Assembly: GCF_000372725.1 (NCBI RefSeq)
Contig: NW_005202176.1
Span: forward strand, 380,188 to 444,187
DNA from: Emiliania huxleyi CCMP1516
Lineage: Eukaryota
Length of the DNA: 64,000 nt
Direction of reading: 5' to 3'
A program made the position numbers and the translations under genes. Positions 8,032-64,000 of this stretch are shown piece after piece (position 1 is the first letter of the stretch; each line of letters starts with the position of its first letter). The notes beneath the pieces were generated by a model. That model made no database searches. It saw only the letters and a list, made by a program, of their open reading frames with translations, and was not told the DNA's origin.

Positions 8032-8895
8032 ATGTGATTGACACGCTGCCGGGCTGTGTAGCCGCCACCCGACCGCCGCGTGACGATGGTGCCTCCAGAC
8101 ACGAGAGCTCTTTAGATTTGTGCACGCCCCCGTTACCCCGTATCCGGTGAATAGCCGCGGGGGCGTTCAATGCGTGAGCATGTCCAGTTCCCAATTGAGC
8201 TTCCTACGACGCTCCAGCTCCGGCTTGTCCGGCTTGCCCAGCTCCCGCTTGCGCCGTCGGTACTCGCGGTTTCGCCGCCGGCGCTCCTTGCGCTGCGCCT
8301 CGCTCATGCGCATCTGCTTCACACTTCGGCGGAAGACCTCCACGGGGTGCTGATGAGCGGCGCCGTCACGCTGTGGACCCTGGGCGCGATCCACCTCGCC
8401 GGCCTCGTCACCTTCCTGAGCTGATCTGCGGCTCCGTGTATCACATCGCCGAGGACCTCGAGCTCTAGGGCTCTATCTAGCTCGGCTTAGTAGCCGAGGC
8501 CGGGCCCGCCGGCGCCGTCGGACTCAGAATCTGCGTGCATGCATGGCGCCAGGGCGAGGAGCCGGCCCTGGCCACGGCATGCAGCCTTTATTAATAAATT
8601 GAGCATGCATGCAGCGCTCGCTGTATGCCAGGCCGGCCGGCTAAGACAAAGTACTTTACAAATCAATGCATATGTCAAATAGATTAGTTACAATCATATT
8701 AATTATTCGTACACGAGCTGGCAGCTCACCTTATTTGCATGCACGAATGGCGGCCGGGCCTCTTAGTCTAGCTCAGGCCTCAGGGACACGCGCCAGCATG
8801 CAGATCGGGCCGCGCACGTCACTGGCCTCGCAGGAGATGATGGGGTGGACCCGCGTGCGAAGCCCAGTGCCTGGCGGCTGCGCGCATGGAAAGGT

Positions 8896-10050: not shown

Positions 10051-10059
10051 CAGCCCCGC

Positions 10060-11108: not shown

Positions 11109-11113
11109 GACTT

Positions 11114-25711: not shown

Positions 25712-27167
25712 GCACGGACAGAGAGTGGAGGATTGTGCGGGGGTGCCCACCGCGGAGGTCAGTCTCTCGGTGCATTTTTACAAACCCACCCGCAAGTGTG
25801 TCGGTAGTCTGCCGCGGTGGAGAAGTCTCTTGATTTGTACTTATACTTGTCGTATATACGGAATCATCAATACGGCTCTTGCGCCTACCCCACTACGGGT
25901 AGCCCATTCACGCGCGCGCTCCGTTGCTAATACGAATAACCCCGCCGATTAGTGTCGTATATCAATTAGTCCGTGCGTCCCTTCGTTTCGTGTGTTTTGG
26001 GATCCTTCGTATTGTTCGAATCCTATGGAGCAAGACGACCTCGGAGACTGGCTCTCACCGCTCTCGCGCAACAGCGAAGCACCGCCCTCTCCATCTCCGC
26101 TCGCCGCCCCGCCTGGCACTCCCCACGCCGGAGTGGGAGCGGGTGCGGGTCTTGTGCAGCTCTCGCATTGTACGGTCCTGGCTACTGCCTTCCATTTTGG
26201 CTGCACCCCGCGTGAGCCGTGTGTGTGTGTGCCGACCGGGGACCCGGACCCCGCTCCCCGGACGGCGCGTCCGCGACCCGGACGGGCCGGTAGCTAGAGA
26301 ATGACCTCTCATACTGGAAACAGAGCCCCCCCCCACCCCCCCCCACCAAAAAACCCCCACTCACCGAGCGATTTCTTTTGGTTGTTCTTTTCTTTTATTT
26401 CGTCGCTGGCTGGTGGTGGCTTAGTTGTTTGCCACACACACGCACCCCTTTGGGCCACGCAATTTCTTTTCCTTGTTCTTTTCGGTTCTTGTTTTTAACG
26501 CTCCGTTTCTTAATCTCTATGTTCTTTTTTCGCACGACATTGTTGTAAAATTCTTTTTTCGAAGCCAGGAGAGAGCCACCGTCCAGCAACAAACCTGTCT
26601 GCACGTCTCGCGCGCGCGTGAACAGGGCTCCAGGCCCCAAATGACGTGTGAGTGTTAGATTTGTTTGGTATTGCTAAAAATCTCTCCCGTCCAGCCGATG
26701 ATATCAGCCGAAATGCGATGGCCGATGCCACCTCCCGTTCGGGTAACAAGCATGATGACACACCCGGGAGCTCGTGTCGCGTGCTCGGACGCCTGTCCGC
26801 ATGCACGCGACCGCGAATAATAAATAAATACAACGGGCATCCCAAGCTAGGGCTGGGTCGAGGACAGACACGTCCCCACCTTTGCAGGATTTTGCAAAAG
26901 CGAGGGGGGAGGGCGCATCGCCGCGCGGAGAGGGCTGGGCACAGGGCACAGGGGATCTCTCTCGCATAGGATATGCACTCGGCGACCGCGAGTGTGACGA
27001 CCGAGAGCTGCGCGAATTCTTTTTTCGCCTGTGTTCGTGCCAGTGCGCGCCAGTCCCGTGCCCAGTGTCGTGCGAGGGAGTTTTGTTGTAAGATTCTTTT
27101 TTCGAAGCCCGGCGGGAGCGGCCTAGAGGAGAGAGGCGCTCAGCACCCGCAACCCCGCCCCCTTTGC

Positions 27168-29378: not shown

Positions 29379-29667
29379 CCCACGCGCCGAAGAGGACTGC
29401 TGGCGCAGACCGCAGTGGCAACCATGTGTGGGGAAGGGATTCGAAGGGTGTCGCTCGGACTTTGGCAACATATATCGAGAATGTACAACTCTCTCGAGTC
29501 ACGAGTGTACGTACGTACTTATAGCTTACTGGGAGAAAAGAGTCGAGTGTACGTTACACTTTTTTGGTTCACATGCCTCCCTGCGACCGCGGTCCGCGCA
29601 ACGATGGTGTGTGTGTGTGAGACGCACAGACGACGTCAACACGCGACAGATGTCAAACACCCGACGC

Positions 29668-32600
29668 TTACGCCCCCATGTCATCCGAGTTGAGGACGAC
29701 AGGCCCAACACGCCCGCCCTCGAGCCTCTGCCGCGCGGGCACCGCCGGCTGAAGGCAGCCGCGGACGCCCGCGAGCAGCTCGGCGAGCGCGCCCTGCCAC
29801 CCGTCCGCCTTGAGCGAGCCGCCGCCACCGCTGGTTGCGGCGGCGCGGGTCGAGCGAGAGCGCGGCAGCTCCTCCAGCGCCTTGGCCGGCGGCGACGGCG
29901 CGAGGAACTCGGCCGCCATCGCCTTGAACCGCTCGTCGCGGCGCGCGATGCACTGCATCACCACGTCGAAGTGCTGCCCCTCGAGCTCCAGCTCGAGCGC
30001 CGACGCCCCAAACTCGCCGAGCGAGCCCTGGATCTGCACCATCCGCTCGAGCGCGCCGAGCGCCCTCGCGCCGAGCACGCGCTCGAAGTCGTCGCGGATG
30101 TGCGCGAGCGAGGAGCCCTCGTCGAGCATCTTTCGGAAGTCGGACGCGTTCTCGTACTTTGCGAACGCCGCGCGCACCATCGCCGAGCGGCCTCCCGTCA
30201 GCCGGTCGACCACGGCGTCGTCGACGTTGCGCAGCCCTTGCGTCATGAGGAAGCTGAAGTACGCCCCTCGCTCGCTCGCGCGTACCATGAGTATGGCGGG
30301 CTCGCCGCGCTCGCCGGCAAAGGCGAAGGGCCGCGGCGGCTTCGGCGCCCTCCCTCCCCACTCGTCCCACACCAGCTGGATGAGCTGCTTGTGCACAGCG
30401 ATCCGGACGGCGGCGGCGCGCGTCGCCTCCTGCGCCTGCGCGATGCTCGGGCGCGCAGGCAGCGAGGCCTTGGCCAGGACGAAGGCGAGGGCGCCCTCGG
30501 GCGAGCCGCGCACCTCGTCAAGGATCCCCTGCAGGGCCTCGAGCCCGCCCGCGTCGCGCGCGCCGCCGAGCTGGATCGTGGGGCCGATGATGAGCGACTC
30601 GGCCGCCATCGCGAAGCTGATGTGCACGTGGCGCGAGAGCTCGCGCAGGAAGCCCGGCATTGCGCCCGACTCTGGCGGGTCGATGAGCACGAGGCCGCGC
30701 GGCCGCCCGCCGAGGCTCCGCGCGATGAGGGCGACTCTGTGCGCGACCAGCGCGCCGAGCGAGCCGCCGATCAGGTCAAAGGGCGAGTCAGCCAGGTAGG
30801 CGACCAGCTCGGCGGCGTACGCCTCGGAGAGCTGCTGGATGGAGGTCGACCCCTCGACGACGCCACTCCAAAAGGCGGGGTGGCGCAGCGCGATCACCTC
30901 GCGCTCGAGCACGTTGGAGGGCTTGTACCACCGCTCGTAGCCTTGCTCGTCGCCGACGACGCTGTGTGCTATGACGAGCGGCGGCGCAGCCGGCGCCGCG
31001 GCAGGTTTGCCGCACAGCCGCACGAGCGACGGACTGATGTACTCAGCCTGCTCGGCTCCAGCGTGCTCGGTCCGATCCGTGGAGGTGGGCGCAGCGGCCG
31101 TGGCCGACGCCTCGACCGACTCCCCAGCTTGCGCTCCTGGCCCCGCCTCGGGCGGTGCGGCCGTGGCACTCGCGCCAAGGTGCAGAGCGAGGGAGCGCGC
31201 CGTCGGGTGGTCAATGAGCAGCGTGCTCGGCAGCTCGTCGACGCCCGTCGCGTGCTGCAGCTGGGTGCGCAACTCGACCGCGCCGAGCGAGTCGAGCCCC
31301 GCATCTGCGAGAGGGACGTCCGCATCGACGCTGCCACTCATAGCGCCACCGATGATGTCGAGGATAGAGTCGAGGTTGAGCGCCACAGACTTCGTGTAGC
31401 CGCCAGCCGCCTTCTCCTTGAGCAGACGCCGGTTCTTCCACGGCAGGAGCAGGCCGGGCACGGGGCCAGCGGCTCCCCGGCCGAGCAGCAGCGGCCACTC
31501 GGCCGGCCACACCGCCACGACGCGGTCGCACCGCGCCAGCGAGGCGTGAAGGGCGTCCCACGCCATCGCACGCGTGACGGCGCCCATGCCGCTCTTCGTC
31601 GCCCGCTCGTCCGCCCCGTGGCGCGCAGCGTAGCCGATCTCGGCGACGGCGCCCCACTGCGTGCCGAGCCCGCCCAGGCCCGCGTCGCGCCGGCAGTGCA
31701 CCAGCGAGTCGAGCCACGTGTTGGCCGCAGAGTGCGGCGTCGCGGCGGCGTTGCCGATGAGCCCCGCCACCGACGAGTAGGCGTGGAAGTGCTGCAGCGC
31801 GCCGGCGAGGCTGGCCGCGTGCAGCCAGCCCGCGCCGTGCACCTTGGGCGCGAAGACCGTGGCGAAGTGGCCCATCGTCTGGTTGCGCACCGTCGCATCC
31901 GCAAGCAAGCCCGCGGCGTGGTAGACCCCGCACAGCGGCATGCAGCTCTGCTGCACGGCGCCGGCAAGCGCCCGCACAGCGGTGGCGTCAGACACGTCGC
32001 AACGGGCGGGCGACACGGCAACGCGGCTGGTGAGCCACGCCCAGTCCGCCTCGCTGCCGCTCTGCACGCGCCCGCTGCGACACGAAAGCACCAGGTGCTT
32101 CGCGCCACGCCCGACGAGCATGCGTGCCGTCAGCAAGCCGAGCCCGCCGAGCCCACCCGAGAAGAGGTGGGTGCCGCGATCGAGCTCCGCGCGCCGTGCG
32201 CCAGGCGACCGCTCGCCCACCTGGGAGACGATGATCGCCTGCGTCTCGAGCAGCAGGCCGTCGCCGCGCATGCAGTGGGAGCTGGCAAAGCCGCTCGCCG
32301 CCAGGATCTGACGCCAGTGCTCCCACGACAGCAGCGGGCTCGGCTGGTTGGTGCGCTCCGGGTCGCTCGCAAACATCCACCACCCGTCGGTCAGGCCAAA
32401 CGTGGTCTGCAAAAATCCACTCGTTCGAAGCAGCTCATTCAGAAGAAGGAAGCCCCCGTCGCAGAGCAGGCGGCGGCAGTTTCGCAGCGTGTTGCGGATG
32501 AAGGGCGTCGCGTGCAGCACGTTGGTGGCGATGGCGAGGTCGAACGATCCCGAGGCGAAGCCCTGGAGGCGCGAGTCGGCGTCGATGTTGAGCAGCTCAA

Positions 32601-35600
32601 AGCGCATGAAGCCGGCGTACTCGGCAAAGCGCCGCTGCGCCTGGTTGAGGAAGACCTCCGACACGTCGGTGAACATGTACTGCTCGCACACCCGACGCAG
32701 CCGCGGCAGCACGCTCGATGCCGTGCCGCCCGTGCCGGCGCCAACCTCGACGACGCTCAAGAAGCGGCCGGCTGGCAGGCTGGCAATGATGGAGTCGATC
32801 GCGGCCACCACGCACTCGTTGTAGAAGCGAGCGTTGACGGCGTCCTCGTACACGGGCAGCGTCAGCTCCATCGACCCTCCCGGGAAGAGGAGCTCCTGGT
32901 AGGCGACGGTGCCGAGGAGGGCGGCGGCGAGCTGGGAGGCACATCGTTGAGTCAAGCCAACCTCAGGCCAGAGCCGCGGCGACACTGCGAGCACGTCTTC
33001 GTACGATGCGGGCTCTGTGGGCGGCTCGATGGCGGCGCACCACTCATGTAGCAGCCGGTGGTGCCACTTGGGGATGGCAGAAGGGTCCAAACCGCTCAGG
33101 GCGCGGGCGATGTCGTGCCTCACAGCCCTCTCAAGCACCTCGTGGGCGTCCGTCACCTGCGGCAATTCCTCGAGCGCGCGCACCGCGTCCGACACGTGGG
33201 CATCAAGCAGCTCGCAGAGCGGCGCAAACGCCACCGCCAACGAGCTTGGCGCACCCAACCGGACAGGTATCGTGATCACCACCTTGCCGAGGTTTGCGCC
33301 GCCCGAGAGGAACCGGAACGCGTCTCGTGCCTCGCGCTCGATGCCGAAGCTGCGGAGCGGGAGGCCGTGGACCACAACCGCCTCGAGCCGCCGCGCGAGG
33401 ACCTGCAGCACCTCTGCAGAGTACCAGTCAGGGTCGGCGGGGACGTCGAGCGCCATGTCGAGGACGGAATAGGCGCTCGGCACGGCGGCGGCGGCTCGCG
33501 CAAAGCTCCACACGGAGCGCTTCCCGATCTCTTCGAACCGGCCGGCCGGCGCAAGGAGCGCGAAGGAGGTGGAGATGAAGTCCGCGGACAGGCTGTTGAG
33601 CACGCCGTCCAGGCGCCGCCCGCCAAGCTGCGATGCGAGCGAATGCCCGCACGAGGCAGCTTGGCGAGAGCTCGCAGTCGAGCGTACGCCGCAGCACCGC
33701 AGGAGGTGGTGCTTGCGCGGGGCGCCCGCGGTGCCAAAGAGCCGGAGGCGAAGCCACGCGGCGTACTCCGAAGCCGCCAGGCCAACGCCGCCGGCCGTAG
33801 CGTGCACGAGCAGCCGCCGCGAGCCGACGAGCCGGGACCGGACGAACGCCACGTGCACAGTGCACCAGGTGCTGATCAGAGTGGTCGCGGCCTCAAAGCT
33901 CACCGCGCTCGGCTTGCGCACCTGCAATCGCGCGTCGCAGCACACATGCGATGCGAGGCAAGCATTGGAGATACCGAAGCAAGCGTCGCGCTGAGCAATG
34001 TGAGCGACCTGCGAGCCCGCGTGCTCCACCATGCCAGCGCAGTCGGAACCCGGGTCGGCTCGAGGCCCCGGATACTGATCCAAAACGATCAGGACATCCC
34101 GGAAGTTGAGGCCGACCGCATGCACGGCGATGCTGACCTCGGTGGGCGCCACCTCGTTGCCATCGCGGGACGAGTGGTCGCCCCGAGGCTCGAGCTTGAG
34201 GTTCGCGAATGAGCCGCGGGGCTCGCAAGTCAGGACGATCGACTGCAACGCCGCCGGCGATCTCCGCAAGGTCAGCCGGCGAACGTGCATCGAGCCGCCG
34301 CGGAGCGCCGCCTCGTTCTCGGCGGCGGGTCCCACTCGCAGGCCGTGGACGAACCCGTCCTCGGATGCCAGCGCGCGCGAGCGCACGAGCTCGGCCGCGC
34401 CACGCAGCGACTGCGCGCACCCGAAGTCGAGGTCCAGGTTGTACAGCGGCAGCCCGGCTGCCTCTTGCAGACACGCACGCGCAAAGCCCCACAGACCGGC
34501 GTGCTCGCTCGAGCTCCGCCGCACGGAGGCGACGGGCTGGGTCAGGTGCGTGCAGACCCACACCGGCACAGCGGCGGGCAGGTCCATCTGCCACTGCACG
34601 ATGGTCAGCGCCGACGCGATGCTGCCCAGCGCGGCCGCAGCCCGGGGCGGCGCGACGAGGACGACGCCATCGAGAGCGCCGGCCTCGCGCAGCTCCGAGG
34701 CGGACCCGCTCTCCGCGCGCCGAGCGATGCTCCGCCCGAGCGCCGCGGCCAGCGTGCCGCGCCGGTCGCCCACGAGCAAGACGCGGGCCTCCCGGCTCGG
34801 ATCGGCCGCGGCGGAGGCCACCGGAGCCCACTCCGTCGCAAAGTAGCCAACCTTTTCAGTGGCCTTGGTCTCGGGCTTCTGTCGCCAAGCAAAGAGGGTT
34901 CGCTTAAAGCGTAAGGATGGCCCCCACGGGACCGCTACGTCATCGCCAGAGATAGTCAATAGATGGTGCACAATGGTGCCGCTGTACCCAAACGAGCTCA
35001 CGCCGCCGAGCCGAGTGGCGTTGCCGCCCTCCCACGTCGTCGCGAGCTGCGTCTGGTGCAAGACGCGGACGCTCTCGATCGCGGAAGCCACGTGCGGGTT
35101 GAGCACGCGGAGCTGTGCGTTGGGCGACGCCTGATCGGTCACCAGCTTCAGCCCGAGGCGAAGAAGCCCCGCGGCACCGGCAGCCGCTTCGGCATGGCCC
35201 GCGTTGGCCTTGATGCTGCCCACTGCCGTGATGGAACCGTGCCCTGCAAGCAAGGTCGCGGCGAGCGAGCCCACCTCGATCGGGTCGCCGAGCGACGTGC
35301 CAGTGCCGTGCGCCTCGACGCAGCTCAGATCATCGCAGGTCGATCCGGCATCGACGAGCGCTGCCTCAAGGAGCGCCTGCTGCGCCTTGCCGTTTGGCGC
35401 GGTGAGGCTCGCGCTCTTGCCGTCTTGCCGCACGCAGCTCCCGGTGGAGACGAGGGACGACTCCGACTTGGCGTGCGACAGCAGTGTGAGGGCACAGCAG
35501 GACTCGCCACGCGCAAAGCCATCAGCGCGGGCGTCAAAAGTGTGGCAGCGCCCCCGCGCCGACGTCATGCCAGCCGTCGCAAAGCTTGTCCCCAGCGACG

Positions 35601-59600: not shown

Positions 59601-62600
59601 CCGACCGAAGCCGAGGACGCGACGTCCGCCGCTCGGCGTCGACCACGCACGACGCGATCGTCCCGCTGTAGCCGAAGGAGCTCACCGCCCCTGTCGCCGC
59701 CGCGCCACCGCCCACCTGGAGGAAAGGCGAGTGCTGCGACGGGAGCGACGCGGTCGGCGAGCCCTCAAAGACCGCCGCAATGTGCGGGTTGACCGTGCGT
59801 AGCTGCGCGTTCGGCGACGCGACGCCGCCGCCAAGACCGACGGCCAGCCGCAGCAGCCCGGAGCCGCCCGCCGCCGGCTCGCCGTGGCCGGCGTTGGCCT
59901 TGACGCTCCCGGTGGGCAACGCGCACTCGTCGCCGAGGTACGTCAGCACCGCCGCGGCGAGCGAGCGCATCTCGATCGGGTCGCCCAGCGCCGTGCCCGT
60001 GCCGTGCGCCTCCCACATCGACAGGTCCTCGCACGGCAGGGCCGCGTCCACCAGACTCGCGTCGAGCAGCGCGTGCTGGGCTCGCCCGTTCGGCGCGGTC
60101 AGGCTCGCGCTCTTCCCGTCTTGCCGCACGCAGCCGCCTCGCACCGCGAGCGTGCACGCCTCCACGCCCGTCGTGCGCAGCGTGAGCGCGCAGCACGCCT
60201 CGCCGCGCGCGTAGCCGTCGGCCCGAGCGTCGAAGGTGTGGCACCGGCCGCGCGCTGACAGCATGCCAGCCACAGCGAAGCACGTGCCCAAGTTCGGCAG
60301 CAGCATCAAGCTGACACCCGCTACGAGGCTGCCGATGCTCTCGCGCAGCTGCGTCGCCCGCAAGCCGGCGTGGCACGCCACCAGCGCGGCGGAGCACGCC
60401 GTGTCGTACGAGACGCACGGGCCCTGCAGGCCGAGCACGTAGGAAAGCCGGCCTGAAGCGATCGAGTGCGCGCTCCCCGTCGCGGCGTACACGCTCCCGC
60501 CCGCCGGCGACGCGTTCATCAGCAAATTGAAGTCCACGCTCGCGATCGCCACAAAGACGCCGAACGCCGTGTCCGCCAGGGCCGCCCGCTCGAGGCCTGC
60601 GCCGCGCAGCGACTCGTAGCCCCGCTCGAGCAGCAACCGCTGCTGCGGGTCCATCGACTGCGCCTCGGCGCTCGACACGCCGAAACGCGCGTGGTCAAAC
60701 AGCTCCGCGCCGTGGACAAACGCGCCGTGCCGCACGCGCCTCGCCACCTCGCCGTCGGAGGGGCTCGGCGCCTCAAGCGTCCAACGCTCGACGGGCACCT
60801 CCGACACGAGGTTGGCGGCGCACGCCCCAACGCGGCTCAGCGACGCCGCAGATGCGACACCCGACGGCAGCACCATCTGCAGCCCGCCCGCGCGCACCGA
60901 GTCGCGTGAGAAGCGAGAGGCCTCCACGCTACCGCCGACCGCCGACCGACGAGACGCCGCCGCCGCCGTCGCCTCGCCGCCGAGAGCAGCCGAGGCAAAG
61001 AAGGCAGCGAGCTGGCGCGCCGTCGGGTGGTCGAAAACCAGTGTGCTTGGCAGAGAGAGCGAGTCGCCCGCCGCGGCATGCAGCTGGTTGCGCAGCTCGA
61101 CGGCGCCGAGCGAGTCGACGCCCGCGTCCATCAGCGGCACGTCCGCGTCGAGCCCGCCTCCCGCGATTTGGCGAGCGATCTCCAGGACAAGGTCGAGGTC
61201 AACCGTGCTCTTGCCTGCAGACCCGCCGGCAGCGACGGCGGCCTTCGGCGCGGCGGAGCCACTCGAGGCCGCCAGCGACGACAGCAGCGGTGGCGTCGTG
61301 CCCATCGTCCGCACAAGCCGACGCCAGTCGACCACCAACAAGGCCAAGACTGGAGGCGCCTGCGGCACCGCGGCAGCCGCCAGTGCCGCCCGGCCCTGAG
61401 CGGCCGTGATCAAGCCGACCCCCGTCGCCTGCAGCCGACCGCCCACCGCGCCGCCCGCCGCCATACCCACGTCCGCCCACGGGCCCCACTGCACGCTCGA
61501 CGCCGCCAGCCCGTCGCCGCGCCGCCGAGCCGACAGCGCGTCGAGGCAGCAGTTGGCCGCGCTGTAGTTCGACTGGCCCGCGCCAAACAGGGCAGCCATC
61601 GACGAGAAGAGCACGAACGAGTCGAGCGGCGCAGCGGCGCACGCGCTCTGCAGGCACCACGCGCCGCCCGCCTTGGGCGCGTACACGCGGCGCAGCGACG
61701 CCGCCGTCTGCGAGCGCAGCAGCCCGTCCGACAGCACGCCCGCCGCGTGCCACACGCCGCGCCACTCCCGCACGCCCACGAGACGGCGCACGTCGGCAGG
61801 CTCCGACGCGTCGCAGCGAGCCGCGAGCAAGGCACACGAGGCCACCGACCCCGCCGATGTGTCCGCCTGCGCCGCGCCCACTCGCCCGCTGCGCGAGGAG
61901 AGCACCACCGCCGACGCGCCTCGGCCGACCAGCCAGCCCGCGGTCACAAAAGCCAGGCCCCCGCTCCCGCCCGTCACGATGTGCGACCCGTGCGCGCTCT
62001 GCTCGAGGAAGGCCACGCGGAGCACCACCTTCCCGGAGTTTGAGCCGCTCTGCAGGTACCGGAACGCCGCGACCGCCTCGCTCTCCAGGTCGAAGAGCTC
62101 CAGCGGCAGCCCGTGCAACACGAGCCGCCGGGCCCGCGCCGCCAGCTGGCGCAGCGCATGTTGGGTCCACTCCGGAGCGTGCTCCATCGTCGCGTCGAGC
62201 GCAAGCACCTCGTAGCGCAGATGCGCCGCCGACGACCACGCCCGCGCCGACGACCACACGCCGCGCTTGCCGATCTCGGCGAAGGTGCCGCCCTCGCGAG
62301 CCAGCGCCACCGAACAGGCGATGAAGTCGCCGGAGAGGCTGTTGAGCACGCAGTCCAACCGCCGCGAGCGCAAGGCCGCCAAGCCCGAAGCGTACGCGCC
62401 GCCGTCGCGCGAGCTGCCCATCCCCCCCTCCAGGCCCAATGCGCGCAGAACGCGGTGCTTGCGTGGCCGCCCCGCGGTCGTGCCAGTCGCTAGCCGAAGC
62501 CAGTGGCTGTACTCCACAGCCGCAAGGCCAACTCCGCCCGCGCCCGCATGCACGAGCAGCCGGTGCCGGGCCAGCGGACGCGAGCCGCAAAACGCGGCAT

Positions 62601-64000
62601 GCACCGTGCTCCACACCGTCGGCAGAGTGCACGCCGAGGCGGGCGACAGCTCCGCCGGCCGCGCCGCCAGCAGCCGCACGTCAGCGCGGGCGAGCGAGGC
62701 AAGCGCCGCCACCGCGTGGCCAAGCACACACCCGCCAACCGCCAGCTCCGCCCCCGCCGCCGCGCCGAGAGCCGCCACGCGCGCCGCACAATCCGAGCCG
62801 GGCGCACCCGGGTCGCCGGGGTACGCACCCAGCACGTTGAGCACGTCGCGAAAGTTGAGGCCGACGCACCACACCCGCAACGAAGCCTCGCCGTCCGCCG
62901 CTACGCCGCTCCCGACCGGCTGCGGCACCACGCGCAAACTCGTCAGCGAGCCCCGCGCGTCAAAGCGAAGCGCGATGGGGCACGAAAGCGAGCACGCCGC
63001 AGCGACGAGCCGAGGCGCGAGAGCGACGTCGCCCACGAGGCGCAGCTCCGGCTCGGCCAAGCCCTGGAGGGCCAGCGCCGCCGCCGCCGGCTCCACGAGG
63101 GACACCGCCGCCGCGCCAGAGAGCGCAAGACAACCGAGCGGCGCCGATGGCGCCTCGCTCCGCGCCGACCGCGCGAGTCCCAGCAAGCCGGGCTGGTGCT
63201 CGTGGCTGTCCCGCGAGCGAGCGCCGCAAGCCCGCACCAGCCACAGAGGCACTTGGAGAGAGCCACCCGCCAGCTGTGAGCGCACCACGCCCAGCGCCGC
63301 CTCAAGCGCCCCGACCGGCTCGGCTGCCGCGCTCGTGCCCGCGATGCCACTGGGCGCCAACACCAAAGAGTCCGTCTGCCGCCCGCCGGTGACCTCGGCC
63401 GCCGGCGAGCGCCGCAGCCGCGGCCGGCACCTCCCGAGCACCAGCGCGCCACCGTCAGCGCCGCCAGCAGAGATAGGGAGAGCCGCCCCGCCGGCCGGCC
63501 GCCACGCCGTAGTGTACAAATGCCGCTCGCGATCCGACGCAGCCGACTCCGCAATCGCGCGGCTCTCAAAGCCGCTCAGCCGCACCGCTGGCGCGCTGCC
63601 ACACGCCGCGCCCGCGAGCCAGACGCTGACCAAGCTCCCGCTCTCCCGAGCAGCGACCGACCAGAGCCGCCCCGAGGCCTGTTGCAGAGCGGCTGCGCCC
63701 ACGGCGAACGGCAGCCGAGTGCAGCCGGAGCGGGTCTCGGAGACCAGCTGCGTGAGCTGCAACGCGCCGTCCAGGTCGGCCGGGTGCAGCTGCGTGCCAG
63801 ACAGCCTGGAGCGCTTGTGCAGCCGTGCCGTCGCTGCGCCGGCCGTGGACAAGCGCGCCGCAGCGAGCGTGCGGTACTCCGGGCCGTACTCAAGCCGCAT
63901 CGAGCGCGAGTGGGCGTAAAGCCGGCCGACACCCGACGCGCATGTGCAAGCGCTGGCGACGGACGGCAGGTCGAGCGGCGCGCTCGGCGAAGCGAGCGGA
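29668..64000 (-). CDS. Giant AT-less (trans-AT) modular type I polyketide synthase, C-terminal >11,400 aa; 5' end outside the window
   Basis: Single open frame, still open at 63901-64000. Contains 6 KS (DTACS, HGTGT, NxGH), 7 ACP (GxDSL), 5 DH regions (HxxxGxxxFP, HPADLDGALQ; the first is partial), 6 ER (LVHAxAGGVG), 7 KR, 3 MT (EVGAGTGG, NVLHAT) and 1 TE (GGSLG). No AT domain is seen. Confidence 0.97.
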   Translation of the reverse strand, partial: PLASPSAPLDLPSVASACTCASGVGRLYAHSRSMRLEYGPEYRTLAAARLSTAGAATARLHKRSRLSGTQLHPADLDGALQLTQLVSETRSGCTRLPFAVGAAALQQASGRLWSVAARESGSLVSVWLAGAACGSAPAVRLSGFESRAIAESAASDRERHLYTTAWRPAGGAALPISAGGADGGALVLGRCRPRLRRSPAAEVTGGRQTDSLVLAPSGIAGTSAAAEPVGALEAALGVVRSQLAGGSLQVPLWLVRACGARSRDSHEHQPGLLGLARSARSEAPSAPLGCLALSGAAAVSLVEPAAAALALQGLAEPELRLVGDVALAPRLVAAACSLSCPIALRFDARGSLTSLRVVPQPVGSGVAADGEASLRVWCVGLNFRDVLNVLGAYPGDPGAPGSDCAARVAALGAAAGAELAVGGCVLGHAVAALASLARADVRLLAARPAELSPASACTLPTVWSTVHAAFCGSRPLARHRLLVHAGAGGVGLAAVEYSHWLRLATGTTAGRPRKHRVLRALGLEGGMGSSRDGGAYASGLAALRSRRLDCVLNSLSGDFIACSVALAREGGTFAEIGKRGVWSSARAWSSAAHLRYEVLALDATMEHAPEWTQHALRQLAARARRLVLHGLPLELFDLESEAVAAFRYLQSGSNSGKVVLRVAFLEQSAHGSHIVTGGSGGLAFVTAGWLVGRGASAVVLSSRSGRVGAAQADTSAGSVASCALLAARCDASEPADVRRLVGVREWRGVWHAAGVLSDGLLRSQTAASLRRVYAPKAGGAWCLQSACAAAPLDSFVLFSSMAALFGAGQSNYSAANCCLDALSARRRGDGLAASSVQWGPWADVGMAAGGAVGGRLQATGVGLITAAQGRAALAAAAVPQAPPVLALLVVDWRRLVRTMGTTPPLLSSLAASSGSAAPKAAVAAGGSAGKSTVDLDLVLEIARQIAGGGLDADVPLMDAGVDSLGAVELRNQLHAAAGDSLSLPSTLVFDHPTARQLAAFFASAALGGEATAAAASRRSAVGGSVEASRFSRDSVRAGGLQMVLPSGVASAASLSRVGACAANLVSEVPVERWTLEAPSPSDGEVARRVRHGAFVHGAELFDHARFGVSSAEAQSMDPQQRLLLERGYESLRGAGLERAALADTAFGVFVAIASVDFNLLMNASPAGGSVYAATGSAHSIASGRLSYVLGLQGPCVSYDTACSAALVACHAGLRATQLRESIGSLVAGVSLMLLPNLGTCFAVAGMLSARGRCHTFDARADGYARGEACCALTLRTTGVEACTLAVRGGCVRQDGKSASLTAPNGRAQHALLDASLVDAALPCEDLSMWEAHGTGTALGDPIEMRSLAAAVLTYLGDECALPTGSVKANAGHGEPAAGGSGLLRLAVGLGGGVASPNAQLRTVNPHIAAVFEGSPTASLPSQHSPFLQVGGGAAATGAVSSFGYSGTIASCVVDAERRTSRPRLRSGAVPLVMQRRRFEPWAGCHPLRAHVSSAGSLTIAWSPAVGRLAALVSDHIVDGQVVFPAAAYLEMARAASAAAHGSVPSAGAALRRVFFLKPLVLDGSAARVSCEVDTAAGRFEISGVGEEPTDHTAHCAGASCPLASPSAPLDLPSVASACTCAAGVGRLYAHSRSMRLEYGPEYRTLAAARLSTAGAATARLHKRSRLSGTQLHPADLDGALQLTQLVSETRPGCTRLPFAVGAAALQQASGRLWSVAARESGSLVSVWLAGAACGSAPAVRLSGFESRAIAESAASDRERHLYTTAWRPAGGAALPISAGGADGGALVLGRCRPRLRRSPAAEVTGGRQTDSLVLAPSGIAGTSAAAEPVGALEAALGVVRSQLAGGSLQVPLWLVRACGARSRDSHEHQPGLLGLARSARSEAPSAPLGCLALSGAAAVSLVEPAAAALALQGLAEPELRLVGDVALAPRLVAAACSLSCPIALRFDARGSLTSLRVVPQPLNKSVAADDEASLRVWCVGLNFRDVLNVLGAYPGDPGAPGSDCAARVAALGAAAGAELAVGGCVLGHAVAALASLARADVRLLAARPAELSPASACTLPTVWSTVHAAFCGSRPLARHRLLVHAGAGGVGLAAVEYSHWLRLATGTTAGRPRKHRVLRALGLEGGMGSSRDGGAYASGLAALRSRRLDCVLNSLSGDFIACSVALAREGGTFAEIGKRGVWSSARAWSSAAHLRYEVLALDATMEHAPEWTQHALRQLAARARRLVLHGLPLELFDLESEAVAAFRYLQSGSNSGKVVLRVAFLEQSAHGSHIVTGGSGGLAFVTAGWLVGRGASAVVLSSRSGRVGAAQADTSAGSVASCALLAARCDASEPADVRRLVGVREWRGVWHAAGVLSDGLLRSQTAASLRRVYAPKAGGAWCLQSACAAAPLDSFVLFSSMAALFGAGQSNYSAANCCLDALSARRRGDGLAASSVQWGPWADVGMAAGGAVGGRLQATGVGLITAAQGRAALAAAAVPQAPPVLALLVVDWRRLVRTMGTTPPLLSSLAASGGSAAPKAAVAAGGSAGKSTVDLDLVLEIARQIAGGGLDADVPLMDAGVDSLGAVELRNQLHAAAGDSLSLPSTLVFDHPTARQLAAFFASAALGGEATAAAASRRSAVGGSVEASRFSRDSVRAGGLQMVLPSGVASAASLSRVGACAANLVSEVPVERWTLEAPSPSDGEVARRVRHGAFVHGAELFDHARFGVSSAEAQSMDPQQRLLLERGYESLRGAGLERAALADTAFGVFVAIASVDFNLLMNASPAGGSVYAATGSAHSIASGRLSYVLGLQGPCVSYDTACSAALVACHAGLRATQLRESIGSLVAGVSLMLLPNLGTSFAVAGMLSARGRCHTFDARADGYARGEACCALTLRTTGVEACTLAVRGGCVRQDGKSASLTAPNGRAQHALLDATLVDAALPCEDLSMWEAHGTGTALGDPIEMRSLAAAVLTYLGDECALPTGSVKANAGHGEPAAGGSGLLRLAVGLGGGVASPNAQLRTVNPHIAAVFEGAPTASLPSQHSPFLQVGGGAAATGAVSSFGYSGTIASCVVDAERRTSGPRLRSGAVPLVMQRRRFEPWAGCHPLRAHVSSAGSLTTAWSPAVGRLAALVSDHIVDGQVVFPAAAYLEMARAASAAAHGSVPSAGAALRRVFFLKPLVLDGSAARVSCEVDTAAGRFEISGVGEEPTDHTAHCAGASCPLASPSAPLDLPSVASACTCAAGVGRLYAHSRSMRLEYGPEYRTLAAARLSTAGAATARLHKRSRLSGTQLHPADLDGALQLTQLVSETRPGCTRLPFAVGAAALQQASGRLWSVAARESGSLVSVWLAGAACGSAPAVRLSGFESRAIAESAASDRERHLYTTAWRPAGGAALPISAGGADGGALVLGRCRPRLRRWPAAEVTGGRQTDSLVLAPSGIAGTSAAAEPVGALEAALGVVRSQLAGGSLQVPLWLVRACGARSRDSHEHQPGLLGLARSARSEAPSAPLGCLALSGAAAVSLVEPAAAALALQGLAEPELRLVGDVALAPRLVAAACSLSCPIALRFDARGSLTSLRVVPQPVGSGVAADGEASLRVWCVGLNFRDVLNVLGAYPGDPGAPGSDCAARVAALGAAAGAELAVGGCVLGHAVAALASLARADVRLLAARPAELSPASACTLPTVWSTVHAAFCGSRPLARHRLLVHAGAGGVGFAAVEYSHWLRLATGTTAGRPRKHRVLRALGLEGGMGSSRDGGAYASGLAALRSRRLDCVLNSLSGDFIACSVALAREGGTFAEIGKRGVWSSARAWSSAAHLRYEVLALDATMEHAPEWTQHALRQLAARARRLVLHGLPLELFDLESEAVAAFRYLQSGSNSGKVVLRVAFLEQSAHGSHIVTGGSGGLAFVTAGWLVGRGASAVVLSSRSGRVGAAQADTSAGSVASCALLAARCDASEPADVRRLVGVRDWRGVWHAAGVLSDGLLRSQTAASLRRVYAPKAGGAWCLQSACAAAPLDSFVLFSSMAALFGAGQSNYSAANCCLDALSARRRGDGLAASSVQWGPWADVGMAAGSAVSARLQASGLRQISLQEGAAGLVAALSAREPAVFALFLTDWDRFLESLPAVPLLLDRFKPAATARGASSTLTNQLPMEQVLRIAQGVAGAELDPDKPLMEAGLDSLGAVELRNQLQRAAGDGLELPSTFIFDAPTVRAISALVQAPEENPGSELGLAPPVMTSSSQTLVGSSVRLPAGVATQHTFSLVLASCGDVAAEVPLERWDVGSAVADAVAGGLDDVVCSRMRYGAFLRQADLFDASAFSVSKSEAFAMDPQQRLCLEHGYAALHAAGLLRASLLGRETGVFLALSCQDFSRVLLQSDAWRSVYAATGSSQSVAAGRLSFALGMQGPCTQVDTACSAGLTATNLACGTLQLGECREAVVLAVNVMLVTDVHQAFAIAGMTSPRGKCHTFDERADGYVRADSCGAAVFEPQDEGQRSRCAVAGVTVRCDGRSASLTAPNGQAQCRLISAAIARAGVRAADVQVEEAHGTGTALGDPIEMRSLSTSVFVPAAKEGAAQTTVGSLKANAGHAEPGAGFSGFQALVLALQGSATSPNAQLRRVNPHVHDVLSIVPCGLPTAPSNVGHGQSGLMYGAVSSFGYSGTIVHAVLSCSARAGEPARPPSAPGLVYRRQRFSWQDELHPLAQQPGRAGEAHLFRSPARGRLVALMADHVVQGRVIFPAAGYLELARAACQASTLYAGSRACHLRRVLFMQPCVVEPAADQHIECEVSGALDSLEIRSGAGAALAERMVHCAASPSGGGAGGAAGARSLAAPAQRACCPHAADAARIYGDFRAVGLEYGRAFQTLAQGWASALSGTAIASLRPRRKACLEGTLLHPADLDGALQASILMERERSSETRLPFSVAEAALSGLHGNMVAMLSRRGASTADVVLSGLGKATRLDHFESRVLKKGAAGKAASAAGKAAPAADWSYACEWAPVASAAADPSQEARVLLVGDRRGTLAAALGRSIARRAESGSASELREAGALDGVVLVAPPRAAAALGSIASALTIVQWQMDLPAAVPVWVCTHLTQPVASVRRSSSEHAGLWGFARACLQEAAGLPLYNLDLDFGCAQSLRGAAELVRSRALASEDGFVHGLRVGPAAENEAALRGGSMHVRRLTLRRSPAALQSIVLTCEPRGSFANLKLEPRGDHSSRDGNEVAPTEVSIAVHAVGLNFRDVLDALGELPSEYLGTLGSDCAGMVEHAGSQVAHIAQRDACFGQAKNCLASHVCCDARLQVRKPSAVSFEAATTLISTWCTVHVAFVRSRLVGSRRLLVHATAGGVGLAASEYAAWLRLRLFGTAGAPRKHHLLRCCGVRSTASSRQAASCGHSLASQLGGRRLDGVLNSLSADFISTSFALLAPAGRFEEIGKRSVWSVARAAAAVPSAYSVLDMALDVPADPDWYSAEVLQVLARRLEAVVVHGLPLRSFGIEREARDAFRFLSGGANLGKVVITIPVRLGAPSSLAVAFAPLCELLDAHVSDAVRALEDLPQVTDAHEVLERAVRHDIARALSGLDPSAIPKWHHRLLYEWCAAIEPPTEPASYEDVLAVSPRLWPEVGVTQRCASQLAAALLGTVAYQELLFPGGSMELTLPVYEDAVNARFYNECVVAAVDSIIASLPAGRFLSVVEVGAGTGGTASSVLPRLRRVCEQYMFTDVSEVFLNQAQRRFAEYAGFMRFELLNIDADSRLQGFASGSFDLAIATNVLHATPFIRNTLRNCRRLLCDGGFLLLNELLRTNGFLQTTFGLTDGWWMFASDPERTNQPSPLLSWEHWRQILAASGFASSHCMRGDGYVLEAQAIIVSQVGERSPGARRAELDRGTHLFSGGLGGLGLLTARMLVGRGAKHLVLSSRSGRVQSGSEADWAWLTSRVAVSPARCDVSDATAVRALAGAVQQSCMPLCGVYHAAGLLADATVRNQAMGHFATVFAPKVHGAGWLHAASLAGALQHFHAYSSVAGLIGNAAATPHSAANTWLDSLVHCRRDAGLGGLGTQWGAVAEIGYAARHGADERATKSGMGAVTRAMAWDALHASLARCDRVVAVWPAEWPLLLGRAPAGAVPGLLLPWKNRRGRAAPKRARAAPAPGVPASASATQPAATAGSSALLSLDGVLEILQGTMSARVDADVPLMEAGLDSLGAVELRNQLQRAAGDAVPLPSTLVFDHPTARQLASFFSDKGAPPVAAAAATPSHASARAAEAVCAAGLSATLPEGVTTLEAARAVAATGGNVVSEVPADRWTLEASNVSAAVAQRVCHGAFVRAADLFDNGHFGISAVEAASMDPQQRILLERGYESLHGAGLPKSSLLGSVTGIFIGIAANDFAEILSKSPAGGSVYSATGSSHSIASGRLSYILGLQGPCASYDTACSSTLTACHAAVRATRHAESVDNLVAGISLLLLPRVSYSFATAGMTSARGRCHTFDARADGYARAEACCALTLRTGMGHLSLAGSCVRSDGKSASLTAPNGKAQQALLEAALVDAGSTCDDLSCVEAHGTGTSLGDPIEVGSLAATLLAGHGSITAVGSIKANAGHAEPAAGAAGLLRLGLKLVTDQASPNAQLRVLNPHVASAIESVRVLHQTQLATTWEGGNATRLGGVSSFGYSGTIVHVVAAASALTVAPSTSFTRRYSYRHKSFKWRSSSPTSTEASLSSYQAAWVRSRSALQAATVSGRCLLLAPHQGISLVGRALVQARLQVEKADLEAGASAAGQWAAVVICPGGEGDTTAAPLITLLQRLVNLQPPPQIIVCTSGEVVAAPRVVQPGSILGGCGSWGVGRVLQLERPQLRLGLVDLPRATPAAEEAARSFFTAALSAAAHDSAAAYVGASRFVARLRRGGGVTKTSTLAGPSRQRSSVVVTGGLGGLGLKAALLFARSASSILLTSRSGAVVRDGQGLHDMLQSLRDSAKHVAVLACDASKPADVKALLGATAGGTAHVLHAAGVADKGLLADILAPRVHAVFAAKVDSARLLHACTTTAPLRGFLLYSSVAAMLGGAGQASYASANSCLDVLAAHLGSRGCVASSVQFPLVQGVGIGAAAFSKGQMSFRGMLAISLVEYEAVLQSVLSNAAVAVRLPLPTATARMLEGVPSADVPLLSELRAAVSSSAASGTENACGSNFSQELATLTPAVRATRMEEAVLETVRKLSDVEAIGAATPLMEAGIDSLAATELASRLRDLTGVAVSPTMVFDHPTPRALASHLLEELRCSGANRPIATASASPAAAEKAISISGGDVARWPGGAEAIGEAMASFEASGDGIRAVPRVRWVLSEHVDIGSISDVQAAAAGSGGFVCKAELFDSALFAISPTEGAAMDPQQRLLLELSYQAFHGHGLRRDSLLGTDTGVYVGMERPDWTRMQSPQAAASVYAVTADTNSVAAGRISFCLGLMGPCMSLDTACSSALSAQHSAASAMRNTECALALVASVTLKLSPLVTLRVAAAGMLSPDARCKTYDRSANGFVRAEGVGAIVLTRDAICEGAPARLLLGSAVRQDGRSASLTAPNGSAQRVLMNAALSRASVTAAAVASIEAHGTGTALGDPIESGALSHLFRAAPGHVAVGALKANVGHAEPMSGLFGICKALHVLSADCAGNAQLRVMNELVSEHLGGGAGPSAILPTQRLQRERGLVAVGGVSSFGYSGTIVHAVLSCSARAGEPARPPSAPGLVYRRQRFSWQDELHPLAQQPGRAGEAHLFRSPARGRLVALMADHVVQGRVIFPAAGYLELARAACQASTLYAGSRACHLRRVLFMQPCVVEPAADQHIECEVSGALDSLEIRSGAGAALAERMVHCAASPSGGGAGGAAGARSLAAPAQRACCPHAADAARIYGDFRAVGLEYGRAFQTLAQGWASALSGTAIASLRPRRKACLEGTLLHPADLDGALQASILMERERSSETRLPFSVAEAALSGLHGNMVAMLSRRGASTADVVLSGLGKATRLDHFESRVLKKGAAGKAASAAGKAAPAADWSYACEWAPVASAAADPSQEARVLLVGDRRGTLAAALGRSIARRAESGSASELREAGALDGVVLVAPPRAAAALGSIASALTIVQWQMDLPAAVPVWVCTHLTQPVASVRRSSSEHAGLWGFARACLQEAAGLPLYNLDLDFGCAQSLRGAAELVRSRALASEDGFVHGLRVGPAAENEAALRGGSMHVRRLTLRRSPAALQSIVLTCEPRGSFANLKLEPRGDHSSRDGNEVAPTEVSIAVHAVGLNFRDVLIVLDQYPGPRADPGSDCAGMVEHAGSQVAHIAQRDACFGISNACLASHVCCDARLQVRKPSAVSFEAATTLISTWCTVHVAFVRSRLVGSRRLLVHATAGGVGLAASEYAAWLRLRLFGTAGAPRKHHLLRCCGVRSTASSRQAASCGHSLASQLGGRRLDGVLNSLSADFISTSFALLAPAGRFEEIGKRSVWSFARAAAAVPSAYSVLDMALDVPADPDWYSAEVLQVLARRLEAVVVHGLPLRSFGIEREARDAFRFLSGGANLGKVVITIPVRLGAPSSLAVAFAPLCELLDAHVSDAVRALEDLPQVTDAHEVLERAVRHDIARALSGLDPSAIPKWHHRLLHEWCAAIEPPTEPASYEDVLAVSPRLWPEVGLTQRCASQLAAALLGTVAYQELLFPGGSMELTLPVYEDAVHSRFYNECVVAAVDSIIASLPAGRFLSVVEVGAGTGGTASSVLPRLRRVCEQYMFTDVSEVFLNQAQRRFAEYAGFMRFELLNIDADSRLQGFASGSFDLAIATNVLHATPFIRNTLRNCRRLLCDGGFLLVNEALRTSSSIQTTFGLTDGWWMFASDPERTNQPSPLLSWEHWRQILAASGFASSHCMRGDGLLLETQAIIVSQVGERSPGARRAELDRGTHLFSGGLGGLGLLTARMLVGRGAKHLVLSSRSGRVQSGSEADWAWLTSRVAVSPARCDVSDATAVRALAGAVQQSCMPLCGVYHAAGLLADATVRNQTMGHFATVFAPKVHGAGWLHAASLAGALQHFHAYSSVAGLIGNAAATPHSAANTWLDSLVHCRRDAGLGGLGTQWGAVAEIGYAARHGADERATKSGMGAVTRAMAWDALHASLARCDRVVAVWPAEWPLLLGRAPAGAVPGLLLPWKNRRGRAAPKRARAAPAPGVPASASATQPAATAGSSALLSLDGVLEILQGTMSARVDADVPLMEAGLDSLGAVELRNQLQRAAGDAVPLPSTLVFDHPTARQLASFFSDKGAPPVAAAAATPSHASARAAEAVCAAGLSATLPEGVTTLEAARAVAATGGNVVSEVPADRWCPDELQFPDELIARRVRHGGFARGIDRFDNACFGISAAETAVMDPQQRILLERGYESLHGAGLKRTTLIGTTMGVFVGIGTQDFAFLVTNSPLASSVYSATGSSHSIASGRLSYILGLQGPCASYDTACSSTLAAGHAALRATQLGECSGGVVAGVSLMLLPSLGTSFATAGMTSARGRCHTFDARADGFARGESCCALTLLSHAKSESSLVSTGSCVRQDGKSASLTAPNGKAQQALLEAALVDAGSTCDDLSCVEAHGTGTSLGDPIEVGSLAATLLAGHGSITAVGSIKANAGHAEAAAGAAGLLRLGLKLVTDQASPNAQLRVLNPHVASAIESVRVLHQTQLATTWEGGNATRLGGVSSFGYSGTIVHHLLTISGDDVAVPWGPSLRFKRTLFAWRQKPETKATEKVGYFATEWAPVASAAADPSREARVLLVGDRRGTLAAALGRSIARRAESGSASELREAGALDGVVLVAPPRAAAALGSIASALTIVQWQMDLPAAVPVWVCTHLTQPVASVRRSSSEHAGLWGFARACLQEAAGLPLYNLDLDFGCAQSLRGAAELVRSRALASEDGFVHGLRVGPAAENEAALRGGSMHVRRLTLRRSPAALQSIVLTCEPRGSFANLKLEPRGDHSSRDGNEVAPTEVSIAVHAVGLNFRDVLIVLDQYPGPRADPGSDCAGMVEHAGSQVAHIAQRDACFGISNACLASHVCCDARLQVRKPSAVSFEAATTLISTWCTVHVAFVRSRLVGSRRLLVHATAGGVGLAASEYAAWLRLRLFGTAGAPRKHHLLRCCGVRSTASSRQAASCGHSLASQLGGRRLDGVLNSLSADFISTSFALLAPAGRFEEIGKRSVWSFARAAAAVPSAYSVLDMALDVPADPDWYSAEVLQVLARRLEAVVVHGLPLRSFGIEREARDAFRFLSGGANLGKVVITIPVRLGAPSSLAVAFAPLCELLDAHVSDAVRALEELPQVTDAHEVLERAVRHDIARALSGLDPSAIPKWHHRLLHEWCAAIEPPTEPASYEDVLAVSPRLWPEVGLTQRCASQLAAALLGTVAYQELLFPGGSMELTLPVYEDAVNARFYNECVVAAIDSIIASLPAGRFLSVVEVGAGTGGTASSVLPRLRRVCEQYMFTDVSEVFLNQAQRRFAEYAGFMRFELLNIDADSRLQGFASGSFDLAIATNVLHATPFIRNTLRNCRRLLCDGGFLLLNELLRTSGFLQTTFGLTDGWWMFASDPERTNQPSPLLSWEHWRQILAASGFASSHCMRGDGLLLETQAIIVSQVGERSPGARRAELDRGTHLFSGGLGGLGLLTARMLVGRGAKHLVLSCRSGRVQSGSEADWAWLTSRVAVSPARCDVSDATAVRALAGAVQQSCMPLCGVYHAAGLLADATVRNQTMGHFATVFAPKVHGAGWLHAASLAGALQHFHAYSSVAGLIGNAAATPHSAANTWLDSLVHCRRDAGLGGLGTQWGAVAEIGYAARHGADERATKSGMGAVTRAMAWDALHASLARCDRVVAVWPAEWPLLLGRGAAGPVPGLLLPWKNRRLLKEKAAGGYTKSVALNLDSILDIIGGAMSGSVDADVPLADAGLDSLGAVELRTQLQHATGVDELPSTLLIDHPTARSLALHLGASATAAPPEAGPGAQAGESVEASATAAAPTSTDRTEHAGAEQAEYISPSLVRLCGKPAAAPAAPPLVIAHSVVGDEQGYERWYKPSNVLEREVIALRHPAFWSGVVEGSTSIQQLSEAYAAELVAYLADSPFDLIGGSLGALVAHRVALIARSLGGRPRGLVLIDPPESGAMPGFLRELSRHVHISFAMAAESLIIGPTIQLGGARDAGGLEALQGILDEVRGSPEGALAFVLAKASLPARPSIAQAQEATRAAAVRIAVHKQLIQLVWDEWGGRAPKPPRPFAFAGERGEPAILMVRASERGAYFSFLMTQGLRNVDDAVVDRLTGGRSAMVRAAFAKYENASDFRKMLDEGSSLAHIRDDFERVLGARALGALERMVQIQGSLGEFGASALELELEGQHFDVVMQCIARRDERFKAMAAEFLAPSPPAKALEELPRSRSTRAAATSGGGGSLKADGWQGALAELLAGVRGCLQPAVPARQRLEGGRVGPVVLNSDDMGA
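29900..31020 (-). other. PKS terminal thioesterase (alpha/beta hydrolase)
   Basis: PLVIAHSVVG, FDLIGGSLGALVA (GxSxG), LVLIDPP and LEGQHF give an apparent Ser-Asp-His triad. Confidence 0.85.
31180..36210 (-). other. PKS terminal module n: KS-psiKR-ER-cMT-KR(Tyr>His)-ACP, no DH
   Basis: The KS is followed directly by YFATEWAP (psiKR start). 31420-34835 repeats 36580-39995 at a 5160-bp offset. Confidence 0.88.
36280..42235 (-). other. PKS module n-1: KS-DH-psiKR-ER-cMT-KR(Tyr>His)-ACP
   Basis: LDTACSSA. The DH-to-ACP region is near-identical to module n-3 at an offset of 9099/9102 bp. Confidence 0.88.
42300..45310 (-). other. PKS module n-2: KS-psiKR-KR-ACP (hydroxyl-retaining)
   Basis: DTACSST, TGGLGGLG, HAAGVADK (no LDD), GQASYASAN, GIDSL. 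No DH or ER motifs. Confidence 0.88.
45380..51350 (-). other. PKS module n-3: KS-DH-psiKR-ER-cMT-KR(Tyr>His)-ACP
   Basis: VDTACSAG, DHVVQGRVIFP, HATAGGVG, EVGAGTGG/NVLHAT/FGLTDGWW, GNAAATPHSAAN, GLDSL. Confidence 0.88.
51420..56100 (-). other. PKS module n-4: KS-DH-psiKR-ER-KR-ACP (fully reducing)
   Basis: Copy of the 4800-bp unit down to ~51850, then a unique KR tail and ACP (GLDSL). Confidence 0.9.
56200..60900 (-). other. PKS module n-5: KS-DH-psiKR-ER-KR-ACP (fully reducing)
   Basis: All catalytic motifs intact. One copy of the 4800-bp unit. Confidence 0.9.
61000..64000 (-). other. PKS module n-6 (partial): DH(C-part)-psiKR-ER-KR-ACP
   Basis: HPADLDGALQ, GLNFRDVL, HAGAGGVG, TGGSGGLA, GQSNYSAAN (Tyr at 61564-61566), GVDSL. 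Confidence 0.9.

Follow-up and report, generated by a model that had tools for sequence, protein, structure and literature searches.

A seven-module AT-less polyketide synthase of Emiliania huxleyi, most likely EhuPKS6, and its predicted branched dihydroxy acid

Locus, domain content and probable identity of the gene

The window, a stretch of 64,000 nucleotides from Emiliania huxleyi CCMP1516 (contig NW_005202176.1), carries on its minus strand one unbroken polyketide synthase (PKS) reading frame at 29668-63999, which ends in a TAA stop at 29668-29670 and runs for 11,443 codons without a stop to the window edge, leaving its 5' side open. Over the same stretch, the remaining five frames contain 56-199 stops each, and the GC3 of the PKS frame is 0.86. 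A Pfam scan of the frame in 8 segments recovered 6 complete KS modules, a partial first module and a TE, in the order DH C-half-ER-KR-ACP, two KS-DH-ER-KR-ACP, KS-DH-ER-MT-KR-ACP, KS-KR-ACP, KS-DH-ER-MT-KR-ACP, KS-ER-MT-KR-ACP and TE. The AT family gave no Pfam match in any of the 8 segments, and no GHSxG or HAFH motif was found in the in-window frame. The Cys-His-His triad is intact in all 6 KSs, the Ser is kept in all 7 ACPs, and the His/Asp motifs are present in all DHs in view. With repeated KS...ACP modules, intact triads and no AT, the frame fits a modular trans-AT type I PKS. The earlier note's description of an AT-less frame of more than 34 kb with at least 7 modules and a terminal TE was thus borne out, counting the partial module as the seventh. 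Its claim of a single exon holds for the part in the window; the loader of an orthologue in a metagenome, locus L001, is split over two frames.

All modules lie on the minus strand. Module 1 (60970-63999), the partial one, is the first of three A-type copies, has a KR with the catalytic Tyr, and is identical to module 2 at 992 of 1000 amino acids. Module 2 (56170-60969; KS-DH-ER-KR(Tyr)-ACP) is the second, fully reducing A-type copy, with a period of 4800 nt, and module 3 (51400-56169; also KR(Tyr)) is the third, with a KR C-terminal end and an ACP of its own. Module 4 (45355-51399) is KS-DH-ER-MT-KR-ACP with His6003 in the KR, module 5 (42265-45354) is KS-KR(Tyr)-ACP and is predicted to leave a hydroxyl, and module 6 (36235-42264) has the order of module 4 with His9036 in the KR. 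Module 7 (31120-36234; KS-ER-MT-KR-ACP with His10756) has no DH; its KS is related to KS5 (334 of 412 amino acids), and its reductive loop is a 99% copy of that of module 6. The type I thioesterase (29890-31002) has, as read from its sequence, a Ser11080/Asp11107/His11343 triad, together with an enlarged helical lid, and its motifs are kept in the homologues P0387 and P0388.

The flanking genes code for NHL-BTB, TauD/DUF6817, HPAT, RPA1 and ankyrin proteins, and 10 of the 15 flanking frames scanned match a family. In the RPA1 neighbour, the OB domain and the C-terminal domain lie in different frames, joined by a GT-AG candidate intron at 19191-19264, which agrees with the claim of intron-bearing neighbours for at least one gene. 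Among named sequences, those closest to the flanking HPAT gene come from Prymnesium and Diacronema (49-56% identity), supporting the proposed haptophyte host, and its 90% cluster includes MMETSP proteins. MMETSP protein matches were found at 96-99% identity.

Several other features were observed near the PKS. At 8899-11111 on the minus strand, 18 kb downstream of it, overlapping frames code for a DUF6817 domain and, after it, a dioxygenase domain of TauD type; they are probably one intron-split fusion gene. Two NHL-repeat paralogues on the plus strand (3985-5119 and 22494-24203) contain 168-nt repeats and are 76% alike; one has a BTB domain and the other is broken over frames. Beside the ankyrin gene, 26300-27100 is a high-copy repeat with very high contig depth and many loose ends, possibly a small mobile element.

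Twelve E. huxleyi PKSs were catalogued by Shelest et al. (2015; PMC4661987), who cite Read et al. (2013). Supplement 2 of that paper gives EhuPKS6 (JGI 632068) as ligase-ACP, three KS-DH-ER-KR-ACP, KS-DH-ER-MT-KR-ACP, KS-KR-ACP, KS-DH-ER-MT-KR-ACP and KS-ER-MT-KR-ACP-TE, with 7 KSs. The domain string of the window equals this string from the DH of module 1 to the TE, including the ER-MT-KR order, the KR-only module 5 and the DH-less module 7, and EhuPKS6 is the only one of the 12 published strings that matches. This match of domain strings makes it very probable that the frame is EhuPKS6; most likely it is the 3' nine-tenths of that gene, or of its allele or orthologue in Gephyrocapsa. If the window and the EhuPKS6 model share one assembly, the match is no independent proof of the module number. 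The N-terminal AMP ligase-ACP loader and the first KS of EhuPKS6 fall beyond the window and are present in L001. If the gene is EhuPKS6, the missing 5' part is estimated at about 1,500 amino acids, and the whole at about 13,000 amino acids, 7 modules and a gene of about 39 kb. Because the string has been listed since 2013/2015, the gene is most likely already annotated and not, as had been suggested, missed by annotation, and its discovery value as a gene is low.

In the sense of the earlier note, the locus could also belong to an undescribed, open-ended and much larger megasynthase, whose upstream part would hold many more saturating modules in a row. The frame is open at the window edge, the A modules are 99% identical tandem copies able to expand, and one DNA run of three gave a contig depth ratio of 4.1-4.7 for the A-module DH/ER relative to the single-copy KS4, although depth is not a copy number. 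This reading is nevertheless very unlikely, as the published EhuPKS6 string has exactly three such modules, 2.6 of them in the window, the depth ratios in the other two DNA runs were 1.6-2.5 and 2.3-2.5, and the orthologue L001 has fewer A modules. Contig depth was rejected as a measure of copy number, since GC differs among the segments and the two-copy DH of modules 4 and 6 gave only 0.8-1.3. The window most likely ends within module 1 of a seven-module EhuPKS6, so the proposed polymethylene run probably comes down to three saturating modules on a short starter.

Contig support and duplication of modules

Window positions 26500-36000 were present in 16 of the 20 runs listed, from 9 studies, with 6 runs recorded as RNA. 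The stretch from KR7 through ACP and TE to the stop was bridged by short-read contigs in two DNA runs, and that from module 5 to KS6 by single contigs in two DNA runs and one RNA run (3 of 4 runs), in each case with 7 or fewer deviating letters and no gap the size of an intron. All four runs contained the junction at which one 4800-nt module follows another head to tail, and a joint in three of four fits the DH-less junction of module 7. The RNA contigs are colinear with the gene. No contig spans the whole gene, so the copy number of the A modules is not fixed by contigs, and 99% identical copies mis-assemble easily. A mis-assembly, a pseudogene or a bacterial contaminant was therefore considered. 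However, the unique junctions and the tandem joint recur in independent contigs, the flanks are eukaryotic and of haptophyte type, and 11,443 codons pass without a stop. An artefact has only the slimmest probability and is largely refuted, the A-module copy number excepted.

In RNA run X11, depth was 27 just past the 3' end and 234-689 inside the gene, which is a hint only. A 2026 study found differential expression of PKS6 in each of its two strains (PMC13508280, Table S23). P0001, an MMETSP transcript protein that is 96% identical, has another module string, in which the MT follows a structural KR without an ER and then come KR(His)-ACP and a KS7-type KS. It may be a strain variant, a paralogue or a chimeric transcript, and its differing string suggests that strains or paralogues vary.

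AT loss and module duplication have been given as the rule for algal PKSs (PMC4661987). Over 7,375 nt the A modules agree at 99.3% of positions, and the identity among the reductive loops of modules 4, 6 and 7 is 98-99%. Given this nucleotide identity of about 99%, the modules arose by recent duplication. The differences among the copies are clustered, with up to 10-14 per 60 nt; in 4 of 5 comparisons, not one of 2000 shuffles reached such a density. The patches fall in an ER loop that holds the stereo-diagnostic Tyr in an alignment to bacterial ERs, and in two MT segments beside residues aligned with the CurJ active site. The ER4 patch (amino acids 5217-5229; 48313-48351, minus strand) is unlike ER6 and ER7, with ER4 lacking the diagnostic Tyr that ER6 has, and the MT6 patches (amino acids 8667-8670 and 8800-8817; 37549-37999, minus strand), aligned to the CurJ MT, are unlike MT4 and MT7. 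The orthologue is represented by the metagenome loci L001 and L003, which share a dataset prefix but are not established as one gene, and whose domains are 49-81% identical. In it, the ER4 and MT6 patches recur in the DH-ER-MT module and the MT7 patch in the terminal module, suggesting that the patches are old subtypes retained while the remainder was homogenised. Since they appear old and kept, ER4, ER6 and the MTs can be argued to work. In addition, KR4, KR6 and KR7 share all motifs, and L001 preserves the ER4 and MT6 patches at an overall identity of 60-80%, so the reductive loops are likely in use. This is a clear case of module homogenisation sparing substrate-contact patches. The patches, the 99% identical copies and the Tyr-to-His ketoreductases described below all go beyond the earlier note.

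A further patch of 10 differences was observed at the ER start of module 2 alone (58091-58116 vs 53291-53316), and this variant appeared in run X3 as a separate contig of about single-copy depth. The MTs belong to the CurJ/DisA type of C-MT (E 1e-49) and retain the Tyr, His and Glu at the aligned positions. The motifs EVGAGTG, NVLHAT and NE occur in all three copies in an alignment to 5thy, so that the SAM motif and the His/Glu dyad are present.

Ketoreductases with His and the predicted product

KR4, KR6 and KR7 have His in place of the catalytic Tyr of the AmphB KR and retain the NADPH motif together with the Lys, the Ser and the Asn. A motif-only count, with His in 30 of 30 MT modules, was rejected because it missed divergent KRs, and an HMM count was used instead. 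Starting from 476 KR domains in 240 homologues, 11 gapped domains and 63 without a KS in the record were dropped, and among the 402 scored, His occupied the catalytic position in 42 of 73 MT modules, leaving 31 without it, versus 4 of 329 others; the rows are related and the query was itself an MT module, so a p-value is not meaningful. The same replacement has been reported in the KRs of HMWP1, MicC and AgrA, which were predicted to be inactive, at odds with the reduced product (PMC12997852), and yersiniabactin synthesis has been achieved in vitro with four purified proteins (PMC5995452). We infer that the His-type KR may be a functional variant, one that allows the methyl group to be added before reduction. 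The window PKS thus provides a lead on His-type ketoreductases. On a more far-reaching and unlikely reading, the MT-KR(His) cassette would be a tunable haptophyte unit, active inside the line and off at the chain ends in some relatives.

Among 27 aligned MT-linked KRs, 21 have His, 3 Tyr and 3 Ala, and all three Ala cases (P0387, P0020 and P0062) end their lines before a TE, that of P0387 being the closest to the window TE (63%). Three of the five chain-terminal MT-KR-ACP-TE relatives scored have thus lost the catalytic residue, while L003 and P0002 end with His. Accordingly, KR7 may be weak or kept only by homogenisation. In that case the same gene would release a 2-methyl-3-keto acid from module 7, with KR7 slow or outrun by the TE, and decarboxylation would give a branched ethyl ketone. 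The Ala in the three relatives, the His in KR7 itself and the similar end of the published alkenone candidate EhuPKS7 speak for the ketone. However, KR7 equals KR4 and KR6, which must function to supply the substrate of DH and ER, and the orthologue L003, whose terminal module is KS-MT-KR(His)-ACP-TE without DH or ER, retains His-Ser-Ala-Ala-Asn. We regard the ketone as unlikely, though it is the chief alternative.

The reading that we favor, and consider probable on balance, is that PKS6 is a seven-module AT-less line building a 3,7-dihydroxy-2,4,8-trimethyl acid on a C16-C17 backbone. The sequence itself displays the domain order, the KS, DH, MT, ACP and TE motifs, the absence of AT and the His in three MT-linked KRs; every chemical step is a prediction. 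The N-terminal ligase-ACP beyond the window would load a short C2-C3 acid, and malonyl would be delivered by a free-standing AT, MAT1 and a malonyl-CoA:ACP transacylase being recorded for the E. huxleyi reference (PMC13508280). Modules 1-3 would add saturated C2 units, and modules 4 and 6 would methylate with SAM and then fully reduce, probably with opposite methyl configurations under the ER Tyr rule (PMC7327777, section 9). Module 5 would leave the hydroxyl at C7, and in module 7 methylation and ketoreduction would produce the hydroxyl at C3, with the ER of this module carried along unused. The TE may then free the acid, C19H38O4 from an acetyl start (16 backbone carbons) or C20H40O4 from a propionyl start (17 carbons with a C3 starter). 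The colinear order would be C1 carboxyl, C2 methyl, C3 hydroxyl, C4 methyl, C7 hydroxyl, C8 methyl and a saturated tail. The line would have grown via tandem module duplication and homogenisation with the substrate-contact patches spared. The alpha-methylated head that the earlier note proposed, with a single internal hydroxyl and oxygen at C3, is therefore supported as a prediction from domain content.

The domains may also be used in a non-colinear manner, with modules 5 and 6 forming a saturating bimodule around a non-elongating KS6, or with some MTs skipped, giving a shorter and less branched chain. Saturating bimodules, one of which carries the only MT, have been proposed for the PKZILLAs (bioRxiv 10.1101/2024.01.29.577497), and KS6 is a deep branch in our KS tree. 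However, KS6 keeps DTACS, EAHGTGT and GHAE, and the own KR and conserved MT subtype of module 6 need a fresh beta-keto group; this arrangement is quite unlikely.

For the favored seven-module line, the start was approached through relatives. When metagenomes were scanned for the loader that would precede the window frame in this species, 74 loci were obtained (best 67% identity), none of them from the same species. The loader ligase of L001 (L001:3087-4855) is of the acetate/propionate-CoA ligase type. Its best match is 6eqo (1850-aa chain, E 2e-67), which we take to be a 3-hydroxypropionate-activating propionyl-CoA synthase, and the next matches are plain acetyl-CoA synthetases (about 1e-27 to 2e-27). 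Because the loader is far closer to 6eqo, a C3 starter, acrylate or 3-hydroxypropionate that could stem from DMSP cleavage, can be envisaged for a branched hydroxy lipid made with a tunable MT-KR(His) cassette, an elaboration that we consider unlikely. The start of L002 is similar to that of the L001 loader. The more distant relative L004 has a fatty acyl-AMP ligase loader, so a long starter would be possible for the window PKS. A further long PKS frame lacking AT, formed by L004, L008 and L013 on one 48.5-kb contig, begins with fatty acyl-AMP ligase domains and has many saturating modules. An alignment-based model of the window TE (pLDDT 86) shows the type I fold and a large lid. In a fold search, which carries no information on release chemistry, the Pks13, oocydin and gladiolin TEs came closest (13-18% identity).

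Comparison with known systems

In a quick KS tree with five window KSs and at most two KSs per protein, which is without PKZILLA and has one chlorophyte trans-AT reference only, all five window KSs belonged to a clade of environmental, AT-less sequences (SH-aLRT 99) that is distinct from the named KSs of bacteria and dinoflagellates. The KSs of P0044, whose source label is 'bacterium', also sit in this algal-type clade, and P0044 is possibly a mis-binned eukaryotic contig.

EhuPKS6 is alike in the full string from the DH of module 1 to the TE, in its seven modules and in being trans-AT, and the table in PMC4661987 gives neither product nor mechanism for it. A literature search, with subscription journals outside its coverage, found nothing on the product of PKS6 or on PKS6 of huxleyi itself. 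What is left as new is a testable structure prediction for a PKS that is expressed, is an orphan as to its product and belongs to a bloom alga abundant worldwide.

EhuPKS7 (JGI 632072/XP_005762094), the alkenone synthase candidate of PMC13508280, shares the lack of AT, many KS-DH-ER-KR-ACP modules and the terminal KS-MT-KR-ACP-TE, but differs in having 13 modules, 21,165 aa and one MT, with no ligase in the published string. The window PKS could itself be thought the alkenone synthase, as the host is a likely alkenone producer, the line ends in MT-KR-TE and PKS6 expression moves with alkenones in one strain (PMC13508280). This is highly improbable. C37-C39 chains are out of reach for seven modules from a short starter, and an alkenone-type line would have about 13 or more modules without internal methylation, whereas here two internal MT modules with intact motifs and a hydroxyl module misfit unbranched trans-dienones; the published candidate is PKS7, and most PKSs in the expression table of PMC13508280 shift alike. 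That paper explains ethyl ketones via methylmalonyl-CoA, and the word 'methyltransferase' is absent from its main text. Optional SAM methylation and a dead terminal KR in PKS7 would give the methyl/ethyl alkenone pair; if so, its terminal MT would explain the pair without methylmalonyl-CoA, and the MT-KR-TE end makes the origin of ethyl alkenones testable.

PKZILLA-1, -2 and -3 of Prymnesium parvum (bioRxiv 10.1101/2024.01.29.577497) are likewise haptophyte trans-AT lines with an ANL ligase-ACP loader and repetitive modules. They have features of their own, namely 74-137 kb, 56 modules over two proteins, 34 introns, 11 KS0, FLX/AMT/ST domains, one MT and a polyether product. In the window PKS, no KS0 modules were found, the KS triads all being intact, and no FLX/AMT/ST tailoring domains were matched by Pfam, so the line is separate from the PKZILLAs, as claimed. 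Against tens of modules and a gene of at least 74 kb, 34 kb lie in the window, with the 5' end beyond it, and about 39 kb are expected if the gene is EhuPKS6, so the term giant is relative.

The bacterial C-MT modules with a His-KR (HMWP1, MicC, AgrA and the McyD-like P0144) and the CurJ/DisA MT share the C-MT fold and residues and the His at the KR catalytic position. They are mostly cis-AT and have the MT 490-850 aa before the KR motif, whereas in the window PKS the MT lies about 325 aa before it, between the ER and the catalytic KR. Mycolipanoic acid and the Mas-type branched hydroxy acids of mycobacteria are made by iterative cis-AT PKSs from methylmalonyl-CoA. The predicted 3-hydroxy-2,4-dimethyl head is alike, and the resemblance is one of product only.
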